Positions 184 through 16,820 of a stretch of 16,848 nt of DNA are shown here, in pieces. The position numbers and the translations under genes are program-made. Where the stretch lies: assembly GCA_016930515.1 (NCBI GenBank), contig JAFGGO010000075.1, positions 1-16,848 on the forward strand, given 5' to 3'. The notes below the pieces were generated by a model. It saw only the letters and a program-made list of their open reading frames with translations, searched no databases and had not been told where the DNA came from. Source of the DNA: Promethearchaeota archaeon. Its GTDB lineage: Archaea; Asgardarchaeota; Lokiarchaeia; Sigyniarchaeales; SOKP01. Position 1 is the stretch's first letter; each line of letters opens with the position of its first letter.

Positions 184-552
184 TTAAATTAATTTAGCAA
201 TCTTCTCGCAAGTTCGCTTTGCGTCGAGTAAAATCAAACCAAGCCGAATGTCAATGGTTGTGGAGACGGTTAAAACCGCATTCCTTCCCGCGCTTAATAC
301 GATAAGATACCCATCAGAACCCTTGATGTATATCTCCTGAAAATCACCCTTGCTCATTTCATGAATTGCTCTCTCGGCGAGGGAGAGAATGGCAGCAGTC
401 ATTGCAGCAACGCGAGTTTCATCCACATCTGCGGCTAAAGCCGACGAAATTGGCAATCCCTCCACGGAAACGATAGCAGCAGCCGTGACCTCCGGCATAG
501 TCGATAATAATTTTCTTAATAGAACATCGAGAGTTTCTGGCGTATCTGACAT
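184..552 (-). CDS. Roadblock/LC7 (MglB/LAMTOR2-like) domain protein
   Basis: 122 aa with the typical roadblock pattern 'AAAIVSVEGLPISS...DETRVAAMTAAILSLAERAIHEM.KG...IYIKG.DGYLIV..AG..AVLTV...LGLILLD'; GAGGAG ribosome-binding motif upstream. Confidence 0.93.
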   Translation of the reverse strand: MSDTPETLDVLLRKLLSTMPEVTAAAIVSVEGLPISSALAADVDETRVAAMTAAILSLAERAIHEMSKGDFQEIYIKGSDGYLIVLSAGRNAVLTVSTTIDIRLGLILLDAKRTCEKIAKLI

Positions 553-748: not shown

Positions 749-2305
749 TTATTTAAAATAACGTTCAATGATGGGGTCCGTATTTTCTAAAAAGACATTA
801 ATTTTACCCTTAAAATGTGTTAATTCGTATTCAAATTCTCTTTCAAATGTTTTCATAAATATTTCCATTTTTTTATACAATATAGGTAAAGATCTTGTAG
901 ATATTAGGGCTATATTCACGTGTTTTCCATAAGAAAACAAAATTTTTGAGTTTTCCTTGTCTATTATTCTCAAGTTCTTTTTTTCGTTAGTTATTTCCGA
1001 GATCAAGGCCATAATTCCCGTTAAACCGCTAGTAATCAAGTCTTCTGAAGGTAAGTGATCTATCTCGGATGAATCCGTGAAATCCTTATAATATAAACAA
1101 ATAGAATTTTTGTTAAATATATAGATACTTTTTATTGTATCGGCCCAATCTGCTTCTTTTGCGGATAAAATTTCTGGGAAAGGCATCATGAATAATATCA
1201 TTACTATTAACAAGAAAATATTAAATCTGTTTTTTATTTCAACGAACCACGCCAGCGATGGGTGAAGCTGGGATATTTCCGTAAATAATCCTTTTACTAA
1301 ACCCCCGCAGCATATGGCTATGATAAATAATAGTAAAAAAACGCAAAATATTTGCCCTCTATACCTAATGGCATTTCTTTTCGTGGTAAAATCTCCTGTG
1401 AAAGTAAAAAGAACTACAATACAAAATGGGATCGTTATACCAATTAAAAAATCTGAAAATAATGATCCAAATATTCCTTCAAATACAATTATCACGGCCG
1501 CATTAAATAGTCCAGCAGAGAAACACCATTTACGACCATTATTATCTAGTGAAATTCCCGTTAAAATTAAGAACAACACAAAAAGTGCCAAATACAAAAC
1601 TGAAGAAGAGAAAAAATTAAAAGATAATGGATATGAATACCCTAAAATAAAACCCAACATTGTAAATGAAAATAAATAGCCTTTAATGGGTTTTTGGAAC
1701 ACCAATTCTCGTAACTTTAAGTTTGATGCTAATCTTTCCTTAGTTTCTATATATGAATATTCTTTTACGATATATAAATAGTTAAAGAGCACATAGCAGA
1801 GTTCTACTCCAACTATGGCCCAAAGGTTTTGTGCTGTTATCGTAAAAACAACGGAAGCAATTATTAGAGCAAATCCAAATAAATAACCTGTTAATCTTCC
1901 TCGATTCAATATAGTTGATTCGTGGATAATGACCGTTTGTAAATTAGTGATATATATAGTAGATGCAAAAATGATCAACATTGCTCCAATAACTTGAAAG
2001 TGTGCTTCTTGAAGCGCTGCAATAATATCACCAATTAGTATGATTATAGACACGATTACTAGTAGATTCATTCGATTTTTAGAAAAATCAACTATCAAAC
2101 CAGCAAAGATAATAGATATTAATAAGGTTATGAGAATTAAAACTATAGTTAAGATGTTTAAATTTAGAAAAATCAAGAATAGTACGGTTTCAATAGATAG
2201 TGTATAAAAGAAAAAGCCCGCCAAAAAATAGAAAAATCCCTTTGCCGTAATGTCGACATCTCGCAAGAGCACGTCGTGCAATAAGAATTTTAATGATTTT
2301 TTCAT
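749..2305 (-). CDS. MFS-fold 12-TM membrane protein fused to a C-terminal longin-like domain
   Basis: About 12 hydrophobic segments in a 6+6 arrangement with a central loop; MFS motif A-like 'GLIVDFSKNR' after TM2 and 'GISLDNNGRK' after TM8; 'NRGRLTG' and 'RYRG' before TM5 and TM11. The soluble last ~130 aa ('SIYIFNKNSICLYYKDF...EDLITSGLTGIMALISEIT...LRIIDKENSKILFSYGKHVNIALIS...FMKTFEREF') have the longin beta-beta-alpha-beta-beta-beta-alpha pattern common in Asgard proteins. Confidence 0.82.
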   Translation of the reverse strand: MKKSLKFLLHDVLLRDVDITAKGFFYFLAGFFFYTLSIETVLFLIFLNLNILTIVLILITLLISIIFAGLIVDFSKNRMNLLVIVSIIILIGDIIAALQEAHFQVIGAMLIIFASTIYITNLQTVIIHESTILNRGRLTGYLFGFALIIASVVFTITAQNLWAIVGVELCYVLFNYLYIVKEYSYIETKERLASNLKLRELVFQKPIKGYLFSFTMLGFILGYSYPLSFNFFSSSVLYLALFVLFLILTGISLDNNGRKWCFSAGLFNAAVIIVFEGIFGSLFSDFLIGITIPFCIVVLFTFTGDFTTKRNAIRYRGQIFCVFLLLFIIAICCGGLVKGLFTEISQLHPSLAWFVEIKNRFNIFLLIVMILFMMPFPEILSAKEADWADTIKSIYIFNKNSICLYYKDFTDSSEIDHLPSEDLITSGLTGIMALISEITNEKKNLRIIDKENSKILFSYGKHVNIALISTRSLPILYKKMEIFMKTFEREFEYELTHFKGKINVFLENTDPIIERYFK

Positions 2306-2475: not shown

Positions 2476-3615
2476 ATGTGGGATGTCGTAGCAATATCGT
2501 ATAAAACGGGCTTTTCGTTTTTATTCTTCATTCTCGCCATTTTAGCCGTTATAGTAGCTAGAAAAGGATATGCTTCAAAGAACATCTACGGTGGTACTTC
2601 GACTCTGATATGTGGAATTCTCTTTGGATTTTTTGGGATCTATAACTTAGTTCACGCAATTCTCCCTTATCCATTTAATGGATTTATGGTTTGGTGGGTC
2701 GGAATTATTTGCTTGATATATATGTTATATGCCCTATTAATAAATAAAACAATTAAAAAAATTGAATTAGAACAATCGCGTGATTATGAGTTTGATTCTA
2801 ATAAATTGAGTCGTTTAAAAAGATATATTGTCCTTATTCGAAAGGAAAATCCGTATCAGAAAAAAATCTCTTTAAAAATGGAAGCCATCAGGAAGAGCTT
2901 TCACTCTACTGGTCTTCTGGTTTTGATTGCATATTATGGTTTATTATTCATTCCCCCACTTACACAAATGGTTAATGAAGGGCTAATCACGTATATCACA
3001 CAAGTAGGGGCCTTCTATAGTTCCTTATGGGGCGATATTGGTTTATATCCATATGTTCCAGGGGATTTCAACGCCGTAATTGATCTCACCATGTTTGCCT
3101 TGATCGCAGCATTGTTCTTCATGATGTTATCCGATTTAATACGAATTCTTTGGGGTCCAGAATATTCTATTTTTAGCCTTTTAACCAAATCTGTATTAAG
3201 AAATAAAGAATTCAATGCATTTGGACCTCAGATTCATCTAATTTGTGGTTCGATTTTCTCTTATCTATTATATATGATGGGATTAATTCCTGCCACCTTA
3301 GCTTTTTCTGCAATAACCGTTTCCTGCTTTTCGGATGCCTTAGCAGCTTTAATAGGAAGGAAATATGGCAGGCATCAAATTACTTGTATTGGAGGAGATG
3401 TAAAATCCATAGAAGGATTTATTGCTGGAGCTGGAAGCGCATTTTTATTTGCTCTATTCTTTGTCGGACCTTTTTACGCGCTCCTAGTTGCATTAATATT
3501 CTTTCTTTTAGATTACTTTCCTATAGTGATTGCCGATAATATTCTAAATCCAATTGCAATAAGCATAGTTTTGGGTCTTGTATCGGTATTCATTCCAATT
3601 CCCATTGGATTTTAA
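2476..3615 (+). CDS. CTP-dependent polyprenol/diacylglycerol kinase-type membrane enzyme (dolichol kinase/phytol kinase/Dgk1-like, cytidylyltransferase family)
   Basis: Polytopic membrane protein with 'EAIRKSFH', 'SDLIR', 'LRNKE' and the family signature 'SDALAALIGRKYGRH...KSIEG...DNILNP'; extra ~3-TM N-terminal segment. Confidence 0.85.
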   Translation: MWDVVAISYKTGFSFLFFILAILAVIVARKGYASKNIYGGTSTLICGILFGFFGIYNLVHAILPYPFNGFMVWWVGIICLIYMLYALLINKTIKKIELEQSRDYEFDSNKLSRLKRYIVLIRKENPYQKKISLKMEAIRKSFHSTGLLVLIAYYGLLFIPPLTQMVNEGLITYITQVGAFYSSLWGDIGLYPYVPGDFNAVIDLTMFALIAALFFMMLSDLIRILWGPEYSIFSLLTKSVLRNKEFNAFGPQIHLICGSIFSYLLYMMGLIPATLAFSAITVSCFSDALAALIGRKYGRHQITCIGGDVKSIEGFIAGAGSAFLFALFFVGPFYALLVALIFFLLDYFPIVIADNILNPIAISIVLGLVSVFIPIPIGF

Positions 3616-3655
3616 AATCATTAAACCTTTAAAAAAAATACACGAAATAAAAACT

Positions 3656-4510
3656 ATGAATATGAAATTTCAGGAATTAATTAAAGACCTAAAAGGTATC
3701 AAGCTTGCAATTTTCGATTTAGATGGTGTGGTTTATCTGGGACAGACACTTATACCTAAAGCTGACGAAGTAATACAAGCTTTAAAAGACCTATCAATAA
3801 AGGTAGTTTACAATTCAAATAATTCCACGATTACTAGAGGCATGTATGTCGAAAGACTTAGGAAGTTTAATATTTCTTGCGATTATTCTGATTTTTACAC
3901 GAGCGCTTCAATTACTGCCCAAGAAATAACAGCAATAAAAAAAAAGTCAAAAATATTCGTTATTGGTGAAAATGGCTTGAGAGAGGAACTCAAGGCTCTT
4001 GGGCACGATGTTGTCATAAAACCTTCAAAATCCCAATACAAAGAAATAGATTTCGTCGTCGTTGGGTTAGATCTTCATTTCAATTACGCAAACCTTGCGT
4101 TGGCACAAAGATGTATATTAGAGGGAGGTGCAAGATTTTACGCCACAAACTCAGATACCACGCTTCCTGTATCCGATGGATTAATGCCTGGTGCTGGTGT
4201 GATGGTTAATGCTGTAACGACATGTACGGGTCAAGAACCAATTAGAATTTTTGGAAAACCTCAACCAGATGGTATTAACCTGATAGTCAAGGATATAAGC
4301 GTTAAACCAGAAGAAGCAATTATATTTGGAGATAGACTCGAGACGGATATTTTAGCGGGAAATCGTGCGGGAATCAAAACTGCGCTTGTACTAACAGGTG
4401 TGAGTAACCTTGAAATGATTTCCACCTTGGAAAAGGATAATAATGCAGATAAAAAGTTACTTCCTAACTTTATATTTACTTCCCTAACAGAGATTTTTAA
4501 ACACGAATGA
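3656..4510 (+). CDS. HAD-superfamily subfamily IIA phosphatase (NagD-like)
   Basis: Motif I 'FDLDGV', motif II 'SNNS', cap 'ATNSD...PGAG', motif III 'GKP', motif IV 'GDRLETDILAG', 'LVLTGV'. Start moved from TTG 3578 (overlaps the upstream gene) to ATG 3656; ATG 3662 is an alternative. Confidence 0.93.
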   Translation: MNMKFQELIKDLKGIKLAIFDLDGVVYLGQTLIPKADEVIQALKDLSIKVVYNSNNSTITRGMYVERLRKFNISCDYSDFYTSASITAQEITAIKKKSKIFVIGENGLREELKALGHDVVIKPSKSQYKEIDFVVVGLDLHFNYANLALAQRCILEGGARFYATNSDTTLPVSDGLMPGAGVMVNAVTTCTGQEPIRIFGKPQPDGINLIVKDISVKPEEAIIFGDRLETDILAGNRAGIKTALVLTGVSNLEMISTLEKDNNADKKLLPNFIFTSLTEIFKHE

Positions 4511-7400: not shown

Positions 7401-7934
7401 TTATATTAAATCGTTTTTTTCCATCATAATATGTGTTAATTCTAGAAAAATATTCTCAACATTTTGACCCGTTTTAGAAGAACATTCAACATATCCGTAT
7501 AATCCGTTATTTTTTGCCATTTCAATAGCCTCTTCTGAAGAAACTGCTCTCATGTGGCTTAAATCGAGCTTGCTCCCTACCATTAATACGGGAATATGTT
7601 CCTCGTTTGCTAGTGTTCCTTGATCGACAATTCTCAGCCAATCGTCAAAATTTTTCAAGCTAGAATATCTCGTGATGTCAAACATGAATATGCCACCAGA
7701 GGCACCCATTAAATAGCTTGGGAGAAGAAATCGAAATCTATCCTCCCCCGCAAAATCCCAAATTTGTAAAGAAATTTTTTTTCCTTCAGATTCAATTTTT
7801 TTTAAATGGAAATCAACACCGATCGTTATGCCAGAATCTTCTTTAAAAATACCTGTTAAATATCTATTAAGAAGAGTGGTTTTTCCCACGCCTCCATCTC
7901 CGAAAATGCACACTTTGAATAATGCGTCCTGCAG
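7401..7934 (-). CDS. Rab-like small GTPase (Ras superfamily), probable CTG start
   Basis: G1 GDGGVGKT, G2/RabF1 TIGVDF, RabF2 LQIWD, G3 DFAGE, RabF3-5-like 'RFR', 'YLMGA', 'FDIT', G4 SKLD, G5 SSK; no C-terminal Cys. The frame extends upstream of GTG 7913 as CTG-Q-D-A-L-F-K-V, which completes strand beta1. Confidence 0.93.
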   Translation of the reverse strand: MQDALFKVCIFGDGGVGKTTLLNRYLTGIFKEDSGITIGVDFHLKKIESEGKKISLQIWDFAGEDRFRFLLPSYLMGASGGIFMFDITRYSSLKNFDDWLRIVDQGTLANEEHIPVLMVGSKLDLSHMRAVSSEEAIEMAKNNGLYGYVECSSKTGQNVENIFLELTHIMMEKNDLI

Positions 7935-13088: not shown

Positions 13089-16000
13089 TCAATAGAGATC
13101 GATTTCAGTCATGTTCCTTTCTTCCATAAATAAAGGAAGTACTTCGAGAAGTTCTTTAATTTTTTGAATATATCCGGTTAATTTCCTTTTAAACACTTCG
13201 AGAATAAATAAAACAAGACTTATCTCGTAAGTTTCTTTAACAAGAGGTTTATTTAATCCTAAAGAATTCAAATAAACTTCAATTTTATTCTCAATATCTT
13301 CAATAGAATTTTCAGCTTTCAAGCTTGTTAACACGAATAATAACACTAGCAGGGAGCTTGTTTTAAAATCATTTCTTTTAGAAATTTTTTCAGCTATTTG
13401 TAAATATTTTTTATTAGCTTGTTGAAACTCTTTCCTTTTAAGCAGTAATAAAACATCGTCGTAATAATGTCGTCGCATTGCTGTTCTTTTCTCAAGTAAG
13501 CTTTTAGAATCTGAAAGAACATCTCTCATCTTTAGTTGGAGGTCGTCCAATAATTGTTCTATTTTTAAATTATAATCCGATAACTGTGCTCTTTCCTTTC
13601 GTGAAAGCATTTGTTTTGAATCATCTACTAAATCTACAGCATCTGTATATTGACGGAGAAATTCGATTTCAGGTTCAAATAATATGAGTTTGTCAATAAT
13701 TTGTTTGTAGGACAATCTAATCAATGAATTTGAATGGCTTTCGTGCGCTTTAAAAATGTGCTCCATGAGTAGAATTTCTGCTAAATTTTGTAATTCATTC
13801 CTTTTAATTTTAGGGGTGGTCGATATTTGCCTGTCAAATGTTAAACTAGCAACTCGAACGCTTTTTTCTGTTATTAATATTAAGCATCCCATTATCAAGG
13901 AAATGGCCGCGTGTTTATATAGATCTTTTGAAGCAAGTTCGTTAAATGTATCTAAGTAAATAATTGATGCACTTGTTAGATTTCCTTCTGAAAGTTGTTC
14001 TAATGCTTTTTCCCAATAATCTTTTTTCATTAAATTTCTTTTTCCAACATCTCTCTTGGTGTTTTCTATCTTATCGGCGTAATTTCTGATATTTTTTTCA
14101 ATATCACTAATATTGACGATTTTTTCTATTGTTTTTTCTTCTTGTTCATGAACTCTTTTTCGACCTAAATGATCGTAAAGAACATCTAATTCTTCGTCAA
14201 AAAGCGGTAAACTTTCTAGGAATAACGCTGCTTCTTCGTATTTTAAGTTCTCATTGATATTTTTCATATCCATGAGATAATTAATTAATATAACAGGAAA
14301 AGTCTCGGTAAATAATTTATTGCTAAATAATTCATTTTCTTCTTCAAAAAGATTACTGATATCGTTTATTTTATTTTGTTTAAAAAGTAAAAGACACGAC
14401 ATGGCAAAAGACACGGCAGCTAAATTATACCTGTTAATGATCAAAAGCCGCTTAGTACTATTTAAATATGATTCAATAGCCTTCTCAAAATCTTTATTTT
14501 TTAGGTAATTTAATGCGTCCTTGAAATAAGCTCTTTTTATCCCAGTTCTTTTTTTCAATTCGTTAACCTTGTCATGTAATGCGTCTCGTGCTTTTTTTTC
14601 TATAATTGAAAACCTTTCTTTTAAAAATTCTCCCTTAATTGAATCTTTTGCGATTCTTGCTGCCTCAGCGCTTTTTTCGGATTCCTTATGAGCAATTATT
14701 TTATGAATTTCCTTTTTTATTTCCTTGTCCTCTATTTTATCGTTACAAACATTTGCAGAGGCTAAATCGTTTAACTCGTAAATATATATTTCGGCTATTT
14801 GCTTGTAAATGTCATCAAAATTAACCTTAAATTTATCTAAATAAGCTGAAGTAATAGTAAGGATTTTTTTTATTATTCCTAAAGCGAGATTAATTCCCTT
14901 TAAATTACGATTTTCTGATACGATCTTTTTTCCTTCCTCTTCTAAAAGTCTTATGAAAATCTCGCTAATTTGTTTTGATTCCTCGTATAGATCGTGAGTT
15001 CTATAGATTGTGATTGATTTTTCGAAAATCATTAAAATATCGTCAAAATCTTTTCCACTTTTAATCTCTTTTAATTGAGCGATAAAACTAGGGTACACGC
15101 GTACTAGATATGCTTTTTGTAAATCTTCGTTTAAAAAAGAAAAATACTCAAAAAATTCGTTATAATATTTACCTTCTAATAATATATCCATGCTTTTTGC
15201 TAGAATCTGGCTTTCAATTTTAGATTTCCCTATTTCTCGAAGGAAATCTGCTTGGGTTTTAATATGAAGGGCTGCTTTTAACCAATCGTTTTGTTCTATA
15301 AAAGAATTTGCTTGTTCTATCTTTTTAGAGTTCATTTGTGCAATAATGTCCATCTCTGCTTGAAAAAATTCGTTTAAAACCTCTATTCCTGTCTGAATAT
15401 ATTCCTGTTGTTCTTTTTTGACGAATTTCTTATTTTCCTCCTCTTTTTTCAGGTTGTATTTATTTAATTGCTTTTTTAGATCCATTGATTCGAGTTTATT
15501 GATTAAAACTCCCGCCATGCTAAAATCCAATTTTTCAATAGCTAACGTGATTAATTTTTCAAGTAAATTATCATAATTCGTCTTTTTTATCTTAAAAGAA
15601 TCCCAAATATTTTCGATTTCGTCAAAGGTTTCTTTAGCAAGTAAAAAGGTCCTCGAAGATATGGCTTCTTCGTAAATCTTTATAAGTACTTCTAATAATT
15701 TTACAACAAATATTTTAAGATGTTCAAATAAACTCTCTTTTTGAAATCTGAATATTGCGTAGTAAAGTTGTTCCTTGGCATCAATGAAATTTCCGTTTGA
15801 AATTAAGAAATCCGCAGCAGCATTAATTTTACTAGCAAGATTTTCGAGTAAAGGAACAATATCCTGATGTGGCAATCTTTCAAGAATTAAAAAAGCTTTT
15901 TCCACTTGACAGGCAGAAATCCAAGCATTTATGGCTAATTCAAACGCAGATTTAACGATTCGCTTGTCGTTTAGTTCAATTGAAGCCCATTGTCCTGCGC

Positions 16001-16820
16001 TCTCGTATTGAATGGCCGCATCTTCGTACTTATTCTTATTAAAAAGCAAATTACCTTCTAAAATCATCCTCTCAGCGTAATATTTCTTGAAAGTATTAGA
16101 TAACTTAGGATCTGTTGCTTCTAAAACATTACTGGCTTCCAAAAAAAGGCTCATTTTGGTAAAAAGATAGGCTGATTGTTCGGAAAAAATATAAAATTCT
16201 TGTTTATTGTAAATTTCGGCAATAGCTGATAATTTCTTTATTGCTTGGGCAGCATAAAAATAATTTTTATTTATAAAATAAAAATTTGCAAGCTGTAAAT
16301 ATATTGGATATCTCATCCATGCGTTCTCAATGTTTAACGGGGTATCTCCCGAAATCATTGCTAAACAGAGACATTGAAGTACTTGATGAAATTGATTTGG
16401 GAAAAGATTAACAAATGCTTCGAGATTGGGATAATTAACCCATACTTTTTCTAATAACTCGTTCGTGGAAATTGGAATTATTCCATCTGGATTGTAAAAA
16501 AGAATTATTGTTGGAATGTCGCGCTTTACTGAAAATATTATCGGGATGATGATATTAAAAAGTTCTGATTCTTCTTCGTTTAACGGGTCTAAAAAATATA
16601 CGATTCCATCAACGCTAGGGATGATATCGTCAAAATCTGCCGTGATAAAATCGGTAATCGCATCGATTTCTAAATCGCAGATGTTTTCTAAAACATTTAG
16701 TTCTCTATACCACTCTTTATATGGGCCTCTATTTTCACCTTTATCGTTAAAAGCAGCTACAAGATGTTTAATTGAGAACCTTGGATTTCCTAGCGCTAAT
16801 ACTTTAAAAACATATCTCAT
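13089..16820 (-). CDS. Large alpha-solenoid (TPR/SNAP-like) protein with a degenerate N-terminal small-GTPase-like domain and three C-terminal repeats
   Basis: 1243 aa. It begins 'MRYVFKVLALG' and has 'VDGIVYFLD' and 'DIPTIILF' at GTPase beta4/beta5 positions. TPR-like helices follow ('EGNLLFNKNKYEDAAIQYESAG'), then three repeats 'KR..(M/I)(K/R)..Y...AL..L......A...YL...L.LF..E'. Confidence 0.8.
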   Translation of the reverse strand: MRYVFKVLALGNPRFSIKHLVAAFNDKGENRGPYKEWYRELNVLENICDLEIDAITDFITADFDDIIPSVDGIVYFLDPLNEEESELFNIIIPIIFSVKRDIPTIILFYNPDGIIPISTNELLEKVWVNYPNLEAFVNLFPNQFHQVLQCLCLAMISGDTPLNIENAWMRYPIYLQLANFYFINKNYFYAAQAIKKLSAIAEIYNKQEFYIFSEQSAYLFTKMSLFLEASNVLEATDPKLSNTFKKYYAERMILEGNLLFNKNKYEDAAIQYESAGQWASIELNDKRIVKSAFELAINAWISACQVEKAFLILERLPHQDIVPLLENLASKINAAADFLISNGNFIDAKEQLYYAIFRFQKESLFEHLKIFVVKLLEVLIKIYEEAISSRTFLLAKETFDEIENIWDSFKIKKTNYDNLLEKLITLAIEKLDFSMAGVLINKLESMDLKKQLNKYNLKKEEENKKFVKKEQQEYIQTGIEVLNEFFQAEMDIIAQMNSKKIEQANSFIEQNDWLKAALHIKTQADFLREIGKSKIESQILAKSMDILLEGKYYNEFFEYFSFLNEDLQKAYLVRVYPSFIAQLKEIKSGKDFDDILMIFEKSITIYRTHDLYEESKQISEIFIRLLEEEGKKIVSENRNLKGINLALGIIKKILTITSAYLDKFKVNFDDIYKQIAEIYIYELNDLASANVCNDKIEDKEIKKEIHKIIAHKESEKSAEAARIAKDSIKGEFLKERFSIIEKKARDALHDKVNELKKRTGIKRAYFKDALNYLKNKDFEKAIESYLNSTKRLLIINRYNLAAVSFAMSCLLLFKQNKINDISNLFEEENELFSNKLFTETFPVILINYLMDMKNINENLKYEEAALFLESLPLFDEELDVLYDHLGRKRVHEQEEKTIEKIVNISDIEKNIRNYADKIENTKRDVGKRNLMKKDYWEKALEQLSEGNLTSASIIYLDTFNELASKDLYKHAAISLIMGCLILITEKSVRVASLTFDRQISTTPKIKRNELQNLAEILLMEHIFKAHESHSNSLIRLSYKQIIDKLILFEPEIEFLRQYTDAVDLVDDSKQMLSRKERAQLSDYNLKIEQLLDDLQLKMRDVLSDSKSLLEKRTAMRRHYYDDVLLLLKRKEFQQANKKYLQIAEKISKRNDFKTSSLLVLLFVLTSLKAENSIEDIENKIEVYLNSLGLNKPLVKETYEISLVLFILEVFKRKLTGYIQKIKELLEVLPLFMEERNMTEIDLY
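13116..14552 (-). repeat. Three diverged protein-level repeats (~125-aa core, ~170-185-aa period) inside the large CDS
   Basis: R1 ~14552-14188 KRTGIKRAYFKDALNYL...LPLFDEE; R2 ~14042-13665 KRNLMKKDYWEKALEQL...LILFEPE; R3 ~13490-13116 KRTAMRRHYYDDVLLLL...LPLFMEE. Confidence 0.8.

Follow-up and report, generated by a model that had tools for sequence, protein, structure and literature searches.

A stretch of DNA from an uncultured Promethearchaeota archaeon of the Lokiarchaeia (positions 1 to 16,848 of contig JAFGGO010000075.1; 16,848 nt, here called the window) encodes a carrier-like membrane protein of the major facilitator superfamily (MFS) that has a longin domain as its C-terminal tail. 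Its membrane part is of MFS fold and its tail, which lies in the cytoplasm, is of longin fold; the fusion of the two has been kept, and the tail belongs to a family that is broad among Asgard archaea. We postulate, with about an even chance of being right, that the protein is a DHA1-like MFS secondary carrier whose folded cytoplasmic tail serves as a protein-docking module, either as a tether or in regulation of the carrier. The gene, referred to below as the MFS-longin gene, is an open frame of 1557 nt, and its homologues reach E values down to 1e-281; with the GC content at 31%, a frame of this length with such homologues is far beyond chance. The genes in the window (TFIIB, Ras-like and Arf/Rag-like GTPases, Roadblock/LC7) and its GC content of about 31% point to an Asgard archaeon. 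The gene and the parts of its product, with transmembrane (TM) helices numbered from the N-terminus, are as follows.

749 to 2305, reverse strand: complete MFS-longin gene, 518 amino acids, ATG start, stop codon at 749-751; from the list of open reading frames (ORFs) and the translation.
1178 to 2305, reverse strand: membrane domain, residues 1-376; a short N-terminal amphipathic helix, then 12 TM helices in the MFS fold (6+6).
2072 to 2101, reverse strand: first copy of motif A, GLIVDFSKNR, residues 69-78, in the cytoplasmic turn between TM2 and TM3; from the translation; G69, D73 and R78 invariant.
1895 to 1924, reverse strand: cytoplasmic loop between TM4 and TM5, HESTILNRGR, residues 128-137; H128, E129, L133, R135, G136 and R137 invariant, mean conservation 0.88.
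1529 to 1558, reverse strand: second copy of motif A, GISLDNNGRK, residues 250-259, in the turn between TM8 and TM9; G250, D254, G257, R258 and K259 invariant.
1355 to 1393, reverse strand: cytoplasmic loop between TM10 and TM11, DFTTKRNAIRYRG, residues 305-317; D305, T308, R310 and R316 invariant, conservation 0.80; the counterpart, in the C-terminal half, of the TM4-TM5 loop.
1136 to 1186, reverse strand: linker from TM12 to the longin core, MPFPEILSAKEADWADT, residues 374-390, with a short helix within it; E378, E384 and W387 invariant, conservation 0.86.
752 to 1135, reverse strand: cytoplasmic longin domain, residues 391-518, in the order β1-β2-α1-β3-β4-β5-α2-α3; predicted local distance difference test (pLDDT) score of the tail model 82.

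The membrane part of the protein is an MFS fold. MFS proteins consist of two halves of six TM helices each, have both termini in the cytoplasm and carry motif A (G-x3-D-x2-G-R-K/R) in the loop between TM2 and TM3, often repeated in the loop between TM8 and TM9. An AlphaFold2 model built from an alignment of 47 homologues has 12 TM helices, from residues 21-47 through 352-373, with a pLDDT of about 90 and a central loop of 25 residues. When the whole model was compared with the PDB using Foldseek, the top matches were MFS carriers only: VMAT2 (8jtb; E 1e-7, target template-modelling score 0.72), and further VMAT1, LmrP, YajR, NorA, VGLUT2 and sialin (probability 1.00, E 8e-8 to 1e-5). These top structural matches are the DHA1-like set. 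The initial annotation, made from the letters alone, had read 12 TM segments and both copies of motif A in this protein, and the model and the structural matches agree with it; the second copy matches the motif in full, and the first is a degenerate match.

The orientation of the protein follows from its charges. The inner loops contain 13 lysines and arginines and the outer loops contain none; together with the 12 helices, this positive-inside count places both termini, and so the tail, in the cytoplasm, as had been proposed. The helices themselves were said to carry few charged residues, which is only roughly right: the window protein has several (E39, D93, E168, E276, D285, K338 and others). 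No buried charged residue is invariant among the 47 sequences. Two polar positions in the middle of the membrane are semi-conserved, position 39 in TM1 (N, E or D in 40 of 47) and position 168 in TM6 (E, N or Q in 41 of 47). The conclusion once drawn from the sparse charges, that a sensor or uniporter fits better than a proton symporter, is weak; the invariant motif A copies and the TM4-TM5 and TM10-TM11 loops fit conformational cycling, and as sequence features they would be compatible with a transporter or a transceptor alike.

The tail is a longin rather than a roadblock. The longin domain has the order β1-β2-α1-β3-β4-β5-α2-α3, with two C-terminal helices, and the roadblock domain has an N-terminal helix instead (PMC10933270). 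The last 143 residues, folded alone with AlphaFold2 from their own alignment, gave a model with a pLDDT of 82 and a predicted template-modelling score (pTM) of 0.78, in which a short extra helix (tail residues 9-15) precedes two strands (16-23 and 28-33), a helix (46-64), three strands (72-75, 78-84 and 88-94) and two helices (99-121 and 128-142). This is the longin topology. In an exhaustive VIA-align search of 48,161 PDB representatives, longins led the matches (Fuzzy 7q3d_C, Z 13.3; Sec22, 12.8; VAMP7, 12.8; Bet5, 11.7), and were followed by a Lokiarchaeota Roadblock-Longin protein (8yqg_B, Z 11.1) and then by sigma- and mu-adaptins, SRX and Mon1/Ccz1. The alignments to longins (Z 10-13.3) span tail residues 15-143, including both C-terminal helices, whereas those to roadblocks (MglB, LAMTOR and Asgard roadblocks; Z 8.5-10.2) end at about residues 114-122. 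Foldseek matched the tail to zeta-COP, sigma-AP2 (a sigma-adaptin) and TRAPPC1, with E values of about 1e-4, and also to 6wj2 through LAMTOR2. Thus, the soluble C-terminal domain that the initial annotation had recognized at 752-1147 (residues 387-518) is indeed of the longin type.

By sequence, the tail is remote from known longins. Pfam Sybindin matches the window protein with 18.4 bits (E 0.0023), which is under the cut-off of 25 bits, and the profile matches in the PDB are to Trs23 (E 0.024) and TRAPPC1 (E 0.11); all three lie over β1-β2-α1. Sequence-level matches of the tail are therefore below threshold and to TRAPP-type longins only, and among relatives the match to curated longin profiles reaches E 5e-4. 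A feature search of the ESM Atlas with the tail gave scores of at most 0.86, which we treat as leads only. We conclude that the tail, as modelled, is a longin by topology and structure.

The fusion of the two domains is real and has been kept. When 5.8 billion proteins were searched by a word index, 51 matched, 50 of them 362-533 amino acids long and 39-83% identical to the query. Most align over 97-100% of the query, and every named source is Promethearchaeota, Promethearchaeia or Lokiarchaeota. The sources are NCBI, JGI, ENA and Logan assemblies, and full-length homologues from independent assemblies exclude an artefact of assembly as the origin of the fusion. Across the alignment of 47 full-length homologues, the proteins are collinear from the N-terminus through every TM segment to the tail, and the fusion is retained in every orthologue. 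A scan of one genome per species found an orthologue in 21 species, all of them Promethearchaeota metagenome-assembled genomes or records labelled 'uncultured archaeon', and close orthologues (more than 219 bits) occur in 9 of the 69 genomes of the window's own family. The window protein belongs to a tight subfamily confined to Lokiarchaeia, in which it is a single gene and not one of a tandem pair. Nothing was found of what might have undone the proposed architecture, whether a tail other than a longin, a membrane part without the MFS fold, an extracellular tail or homologues without the fusion.

Two short matches had the appearance of stand-alone tails, and neither is one. A match of 144 amino acids comes from a locus in GCA_030620005.1, where the MFS-longin gene and the adjoining roadblock gene are each called in at least two pieces, in a manner that resembles indel errors of assembly; the apparent tail protein there is a product of the fragmented gene calls. 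The other, of 193 amino acids, sits on a contig of 898 nt and gives no evidence for a split form.

Conservation is highest on the cytoplasmic side of the protein. In the 47-sequence alignment, mean conservation falls from the longin tail (0.71) through the cytoplasmic loops (0.64) and the TM helices (0.55) to the outer loops (0.43). Within the membrane part, every invariant residue is on the cytoplasmic face; the central loop, too, has an invariant motif, YxYxETxER.

The same kind of tail occurs on many other membrane proteins of Asgard archaea. A profile of the tail, searched against 1.84 billion representatives, found 1186 proteins at E<=1e-3, of which 380 were at E<=1e-10. Among the best 147 of these 1186, the domain is nearly always C-terminal to hydrophobic segments; there are 47 proteins with at least 9 TM helices, 51 with 4-8 and many with 1-3, besides a few giants of 1100-2600 amino acids. 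Pfam MFS_1 matches 41 of the 47 representatives with at least 9 TM helices (best E 1.8e-28), and a class of 340-380 amino acids with 6-7 TM helices has the same tail behind a membrane part without a clear Pfam family. Some members have weak matches to Fuz_longin_1 or Intu_longin_1. The tail type is present in 243 of 301 Asgard genomes, and in 81 of the 90 high-quality ones. In a tree of the tails, the TM class changes 47 times, compared to about 75 times in shuffles (minimum 66), a rough measure in which related sequences share labels. From these sequences, the pattern suggests a few old fusions of the tail with membrane domains, followed by radiation.

The window's own genome, of 4.0 Mb, illustrates this variety. 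It has a second MFS-longin gene and a tandem pair of longin genes with 6-7 TM helices (C47:29908-32203). An iterative census with hidden Markov models found 91 small-GTPase-like, 27 roadblock-like and 30 longin-tail-like ORFs, and 12 of the 30 are tethered to the membrane by at least one TM helix. The giants of 1100-2600 amino acids have one or two TM helices and then the same longin tail near the C-terminus, and two of them are in this genome (C130:5518-10269 and C161:19254-22970). There is also a second-tier subfamily of MFS-longin proteins of about 550 amino acids (135-165 bits to the tail profile), whose genes sometimes come in tandem, paired head to tail, as seen in several genomes from that family.

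Based on these results, we suspect that the DHA1-like carrier probably still runs an alternating-access cycle, and that the longin tail would act as a docking module, keeping a soluble partner close to the carrier at the membrane. In MFS proteins, motif A and the gating loops stabilize and switch conformations. Both copies of motif A and the gating loops are invariant in this subfamily, and from this sequence pattern we infer that the MFS part may be conformationally active. From the roles of longins in eukaryotes, where the fold serves as a docking site for small GTPases, and from the rank of the tail as the most conserved part of the protein, we infer that the tail could dock a partner. Constraint is strongest in the tail, the linker and the cytoplasmic face, and the same tail stands on many unrelated membrane scaffolds, which argues for a docking module. 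The likeliest partner would be another protein with a longin or roadblock domain, or a small GTPase, and the docking module might serve for tethering or for regulation of the carrier.

Several observations weigh against a docking tail on a working carrier. Across the loci described below there is no consistent genomic association of the MFS-longin gene with a GTPase or roadblock gene, so that the neighbourhood supplies no consistent partner. The helices that line the cavity are poorly conserved and carry no invariant charge, and transport is therefore not assured. Neither domain is recognized in the window protein by family profiles: Pfam MFS_1 (PF07690) has no match at E<=0.1, no longin family of Pfam reaches its threshold, searches of Pfam and NCBIfam gave no significant family for the protein itself, and a sequence profile of the full family did not recover MFS chains from the PDB. 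Pfam MFS_1 does match 41 of the 47 aligned family members (best E 1.2e-14), and the MFS and longin assignments of the window protein accordingly lean on predicted structure and on members of the family. Finally, in the whole-protein model the tail has a pLDDT of 33-70, so its placement against the carrier cannot be stated.

A more elaborate possibility is that the protein is a transceptor. The longin tail would read solute binding or conformation in the MFS part and, alone or with the neighbouring roadblock protein, would be a guanine nucleotide exchange factor (GEF), a GTPase-activating protein or a scaffold for a small GTPase; the protein would then be a one-polypeptide analogue of SLC38A9-Ragulator-Rag. 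We consider this unlikely, and much of the case for and against it comes from the neighbouring genes. The nearest of them is the following.

184 to 552, reverse strand: Roadblock/LC7 gene, 122 amino acids (Pfam Robl_LC7, 4.8e-20), in the same orientation as the MFS-longin gene and 196 nt downstream of it; context only, with a functional link unsupported.

A roadblock gene adjoins the 3' end of the MFS-longin gene in 14 of the 18 species-level loci with enough flanking sequence, co-oriented in 9 and convergent in 5. The window also has a Ras/Rab-like GTPase gene (7401-7913, reverse strand; 170 amino acids, listed with a GTG start), and seven other loci have its orthologue (217-274 bits) in the same relative position beyond the HAD gene, about 3-6 kb from the MFS-longin gene. 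However, synteny extends over an entire block of about 12 kb, which takes in these neighbours along with ribosomal and Kae1 genes, in the order: unknown gene, Ras-like GTPase, HAD, 380-aa membrane protein, (URO-D), MFS-longin, roadblock, Rpb7, DUF359, S24e, S27ae and Kae1. Where the MFS-longin gene is missing from this spot, the roadblock gene still heads the Rpb7-Spt4 cluster, and the HAD and membrane genes still lie upstream. The roadblock protein has 585 clusters at E<=1e-10, and its identity is 72-78% in records that carry the labels Loki-, Thor-, Hod- and Hermodarchaeota; by these sequence matches it is a core Asgard gene, spread far wider than this MFS-longin subfamily. The conservation of the whole block, and the persistence of the roadblock gene where the MFS-longin gene is absent, indicate that the adjacency is synteny.

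Other loci lead in the same direction. In one genus, three genes separate a second-tier MFS-longin gene from the roadblock gene, and the most divergent orthologues of the MFS-longin gene sit elsewhere, with no roadblock or GTPase gene within 7 kb. In the five of the 14 loci in which the roadblock gene is on the opposite strand, it keeps its exact position, and there it converges with the MFS-longin gene and diverges from Rpb7. Membrane-longin genes of the window's genome (n=12) are not enriched near GTPase genes: 33% of them have a GTPase-like ORF within 10 kb, compared to 27% of all ORFs of at least 200 amino acids, and 8% have one within 5 kb, compared to 18%. For the cultured Lokiarchaeon, a published analysis reports that operons shared between GTPase genes and roadblock or longin genes are not the general rule (PMC10933270). 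The striking neighbourhood in the window is thus best explained by inherited block synteny and not by dedicated pairing, and the context neither supports nor excludes a GTPase partner.

Some features of the protein itself would suit a transceptor. The closest structural matches of the tail include GEF-type longins (Fuzzy and Bet5, with the Z scores given above, and Mon1/Ccz1, Z about 10.5), its sequence-level matches are to TRAPP longins alone, and the invariant cytoplasmic face of the carrier would suit conformational coupling. CAAX domains and prenyltransferases are listed as not found in the composite genome of Lokiarchaeum (2016 review, PMC4917890, Table 1), and without them a docking site embedded in the membrane would be useful. 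Nevertheless, the coupling of solute binding or of the transport cycle to GTPase regulation, as envisaged in the initial annotation, gained no support.

A few further observations concern the genes around the MFS-longin gene. In several lineages, the roadblock gene is directly upstream of a housekeeping cluster (Rpb7-Spt4-DUF359-S24e-S27ae-Kae1-Bud32), an odd site for a presumed GTPase regulator. Elsewhere, a membrane protein of 265 amino acids replaces the MFS-longin protein upstream of the roadblock gene, and it lacks a longin tail. On the forward strand of the window, a gene for a polytopic membrane protein of 379 amino acids (2476-3615), with no Pfam or NCBIfam family, overlaps a gene for a HAD-type hydrolase (3578-4510) by 38 nt. 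This pair is conserved, diverges from the MFS-longin gene in most loci and persists in genomes without it; a by-eye reading of the 2476-3615 product as a polyprenol-kinase-type protein found no profile support. The last 3.7 kb of the window hold an ORF of 1243 amino acids (13089-16820, reverse strand) without a significant Pfam family.

Accessory domains are found in other transporters, including YAM in YajR, STAS in SLC26 and CBS in ClC, and the longin tail might likewise be a self-contained domain for regulation or oligomerization. It would then have no outside partner, and would dimerize carriers or gate them by docking on the cytoplasmic face. We think this improbable, to about the same degree as a transceptor. 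E. coli YajR (3wdo), an MFS protein with a C-terminal cytoplasmic domain, is among the structural matches (E 1e-6), conservation in the linker and in the carrier's cytoplasmic loops is on a par with that of the tail, and some relatives are tandem gene pairs. In addition, longin and roadblock domains are usually dimeric (PMC10933270). A complex prediction with two copies of the tail scored 0.24, compared to a mark of 0.42, and counts neither for nor against pairing. In contrast, the presence of the same tail behind unrelated membrane domains, and on giants of 1100-2600 amino acids, argues for a shared external function, and the full-length model has no confident docking of the tail on the carrier.

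We also considered a broader version of the link to GTPases, in which membrane proteins with built-in longin tails are Asgard membrane receptors for small GTPases. In the protein described here, recruitment or activation of a Rag-, Arf- or Rab-like GTPase by the tail would depend on the conformation of the MFS part, as a working carrier. This is speculative and we hold it to be quite unlikely, but if it were true, lysosomal nutrient sensing would have a prokaryotic forerunner in this protein, with the carrier, the roadblock/longin platform and the GTPase connection in one polypeptide. Least probable of all, and by our estimate very unlikely, is a passive anchor, an MFS fold that has lost transport and merely holds the longin domain in place: the membrane part shows less conservation than the tail and has no invariant buried charge, the window protein is below detection by Pfam MFS_1, and the tail family also uses simple anchors of 1-4 TM helices, but both copies of motif A and the TM4-TM5 and TM10-TM11 loops are invariant in 47 sequences, and an anchor has no need of 12 helices and conformational motifs.

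We therefore return to the docking module as our preferred explanation, and to what it may mean for Asgard biology. Longins, MFS carriers, MFS proteins with extra cytoplasmic domains and sensors with a carrier fold are all known. A longin behind a polytopic carrier was not found described in the literature searched, and appears to be undescribed; the initial annotation had named no characterized MFS-longin fusion, and we found none in that literature, although TM-linked longins may have been mentioned outside it. This analysis defines the Lokiarchaeia subfamily, gives the evidence for a longin as opposed to a roadblock, describes the pattern of conservation and accounts for roadblock adjacency as block synteny. 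In Asgard genomes, small GTPases, roadblocks and longins are encoded by the dozen, and little is settled about their sites of action or their routes to membranes. This large class of longins, apparently undescribed, behind transporters and other membrane domains provides concrete baits that can be expressed in a search for partners. Longin-tailed carriers could also be used to ask whether the coupling of transport to GTPases predates eukaryotes. If the tail merely dimerizes or gates the carrier, it would still be a new accessory domain for the MFS.

Longin domains in known systems resemble this tail in fold and differ from it in setting. The TRAPP subunits Bet5/TRAPPC1 and Trs23/TRAPPC4 (Sybindin, PF04099; 3cue, 2j3t and 7b6d) have the same fold and strand order as the tail (3cue_C, Z 11.7, root mean square deviation (rmsd) 3.0 Å over 119 residues). 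However, these subunits are soluble and belong to a multi-subunit Rab GEF, in which they pair with each other and with Bet3, whereas in the window protein the domain forms the tail of a 12-TM carrier and the matches are below the Pfam threshold. No Bet3-like gene was seen in the window. The subunits of the tri-longin GEFs (Fuzzy-Inturned/CPLANE, Mon1-Ccz1 and HPS1-HPS4) include the best structural match to the tail (7q3d_C, Z 13.3, rmsd 2.7 Å over 120 residues), with Mon1 and Ccz1 at Z 10-10.7. Those proteins have three longins, are soluble and act as heterodimers on Rab GTPases; here, a single longin is carried by a membrane protein. The longin SNAREs (Sec22b, VAMP7 and Ykt6) have a cytoplasmic longin that is attached to the membrane, as here (Z 12.8 to both 3egd_C of Sec22 and 4afi_B of VAMP7). 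In contrast to the window protein, in which the longin is C-terminal to 12 TM helices, the SNAREs begin with the longin, continue with a SNARE motif and end in a single TM helix or a lipid anchor. There is no room for a SNARE motif in the window protein because the longin core of 128 residues, which comes after a linker of 17 residues, reaches the C-terminus.

The arrangement of a carrier with a cytoplasmic extension also has precedents. In Snf3/Rgt2 and Pho84 of yeast, and in SLC38A9-Ragulator-Rag, a carrier fold with a cytoplasmic extension talks to a signalling machine, although the resemblance to the MFS-longin protein is one of functional analogy only. The tails of Snf3 and Rgt2 are unstructured motifs that bind Mth1/Std1, whereas this tail is a folded longin. 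SLC38A9 combines an amino-acid-transporter fold with an N-terminal peptide and a roadblock/GTPase machine, and here an MFS fold is fused to a longin. E. coli YajR is similar to the whole model in being a DHA-type 12-TM MFS protein with a small folded cytoplasmic domain; its YAM domain, in a bacterial protein, has a ferredoxin-like fold and not a longin fold. Lastly, the solved longin and roadblock proteins from Asgard archaea, a Roadblock-Longin protein (8yqg) and Rag-like GTPases with a fused roadblock (9m28 and 8yl2), are soluble, and 8yqg shares the fold of the tail that in the MFS-longin protein is joined to a membrane carrier.

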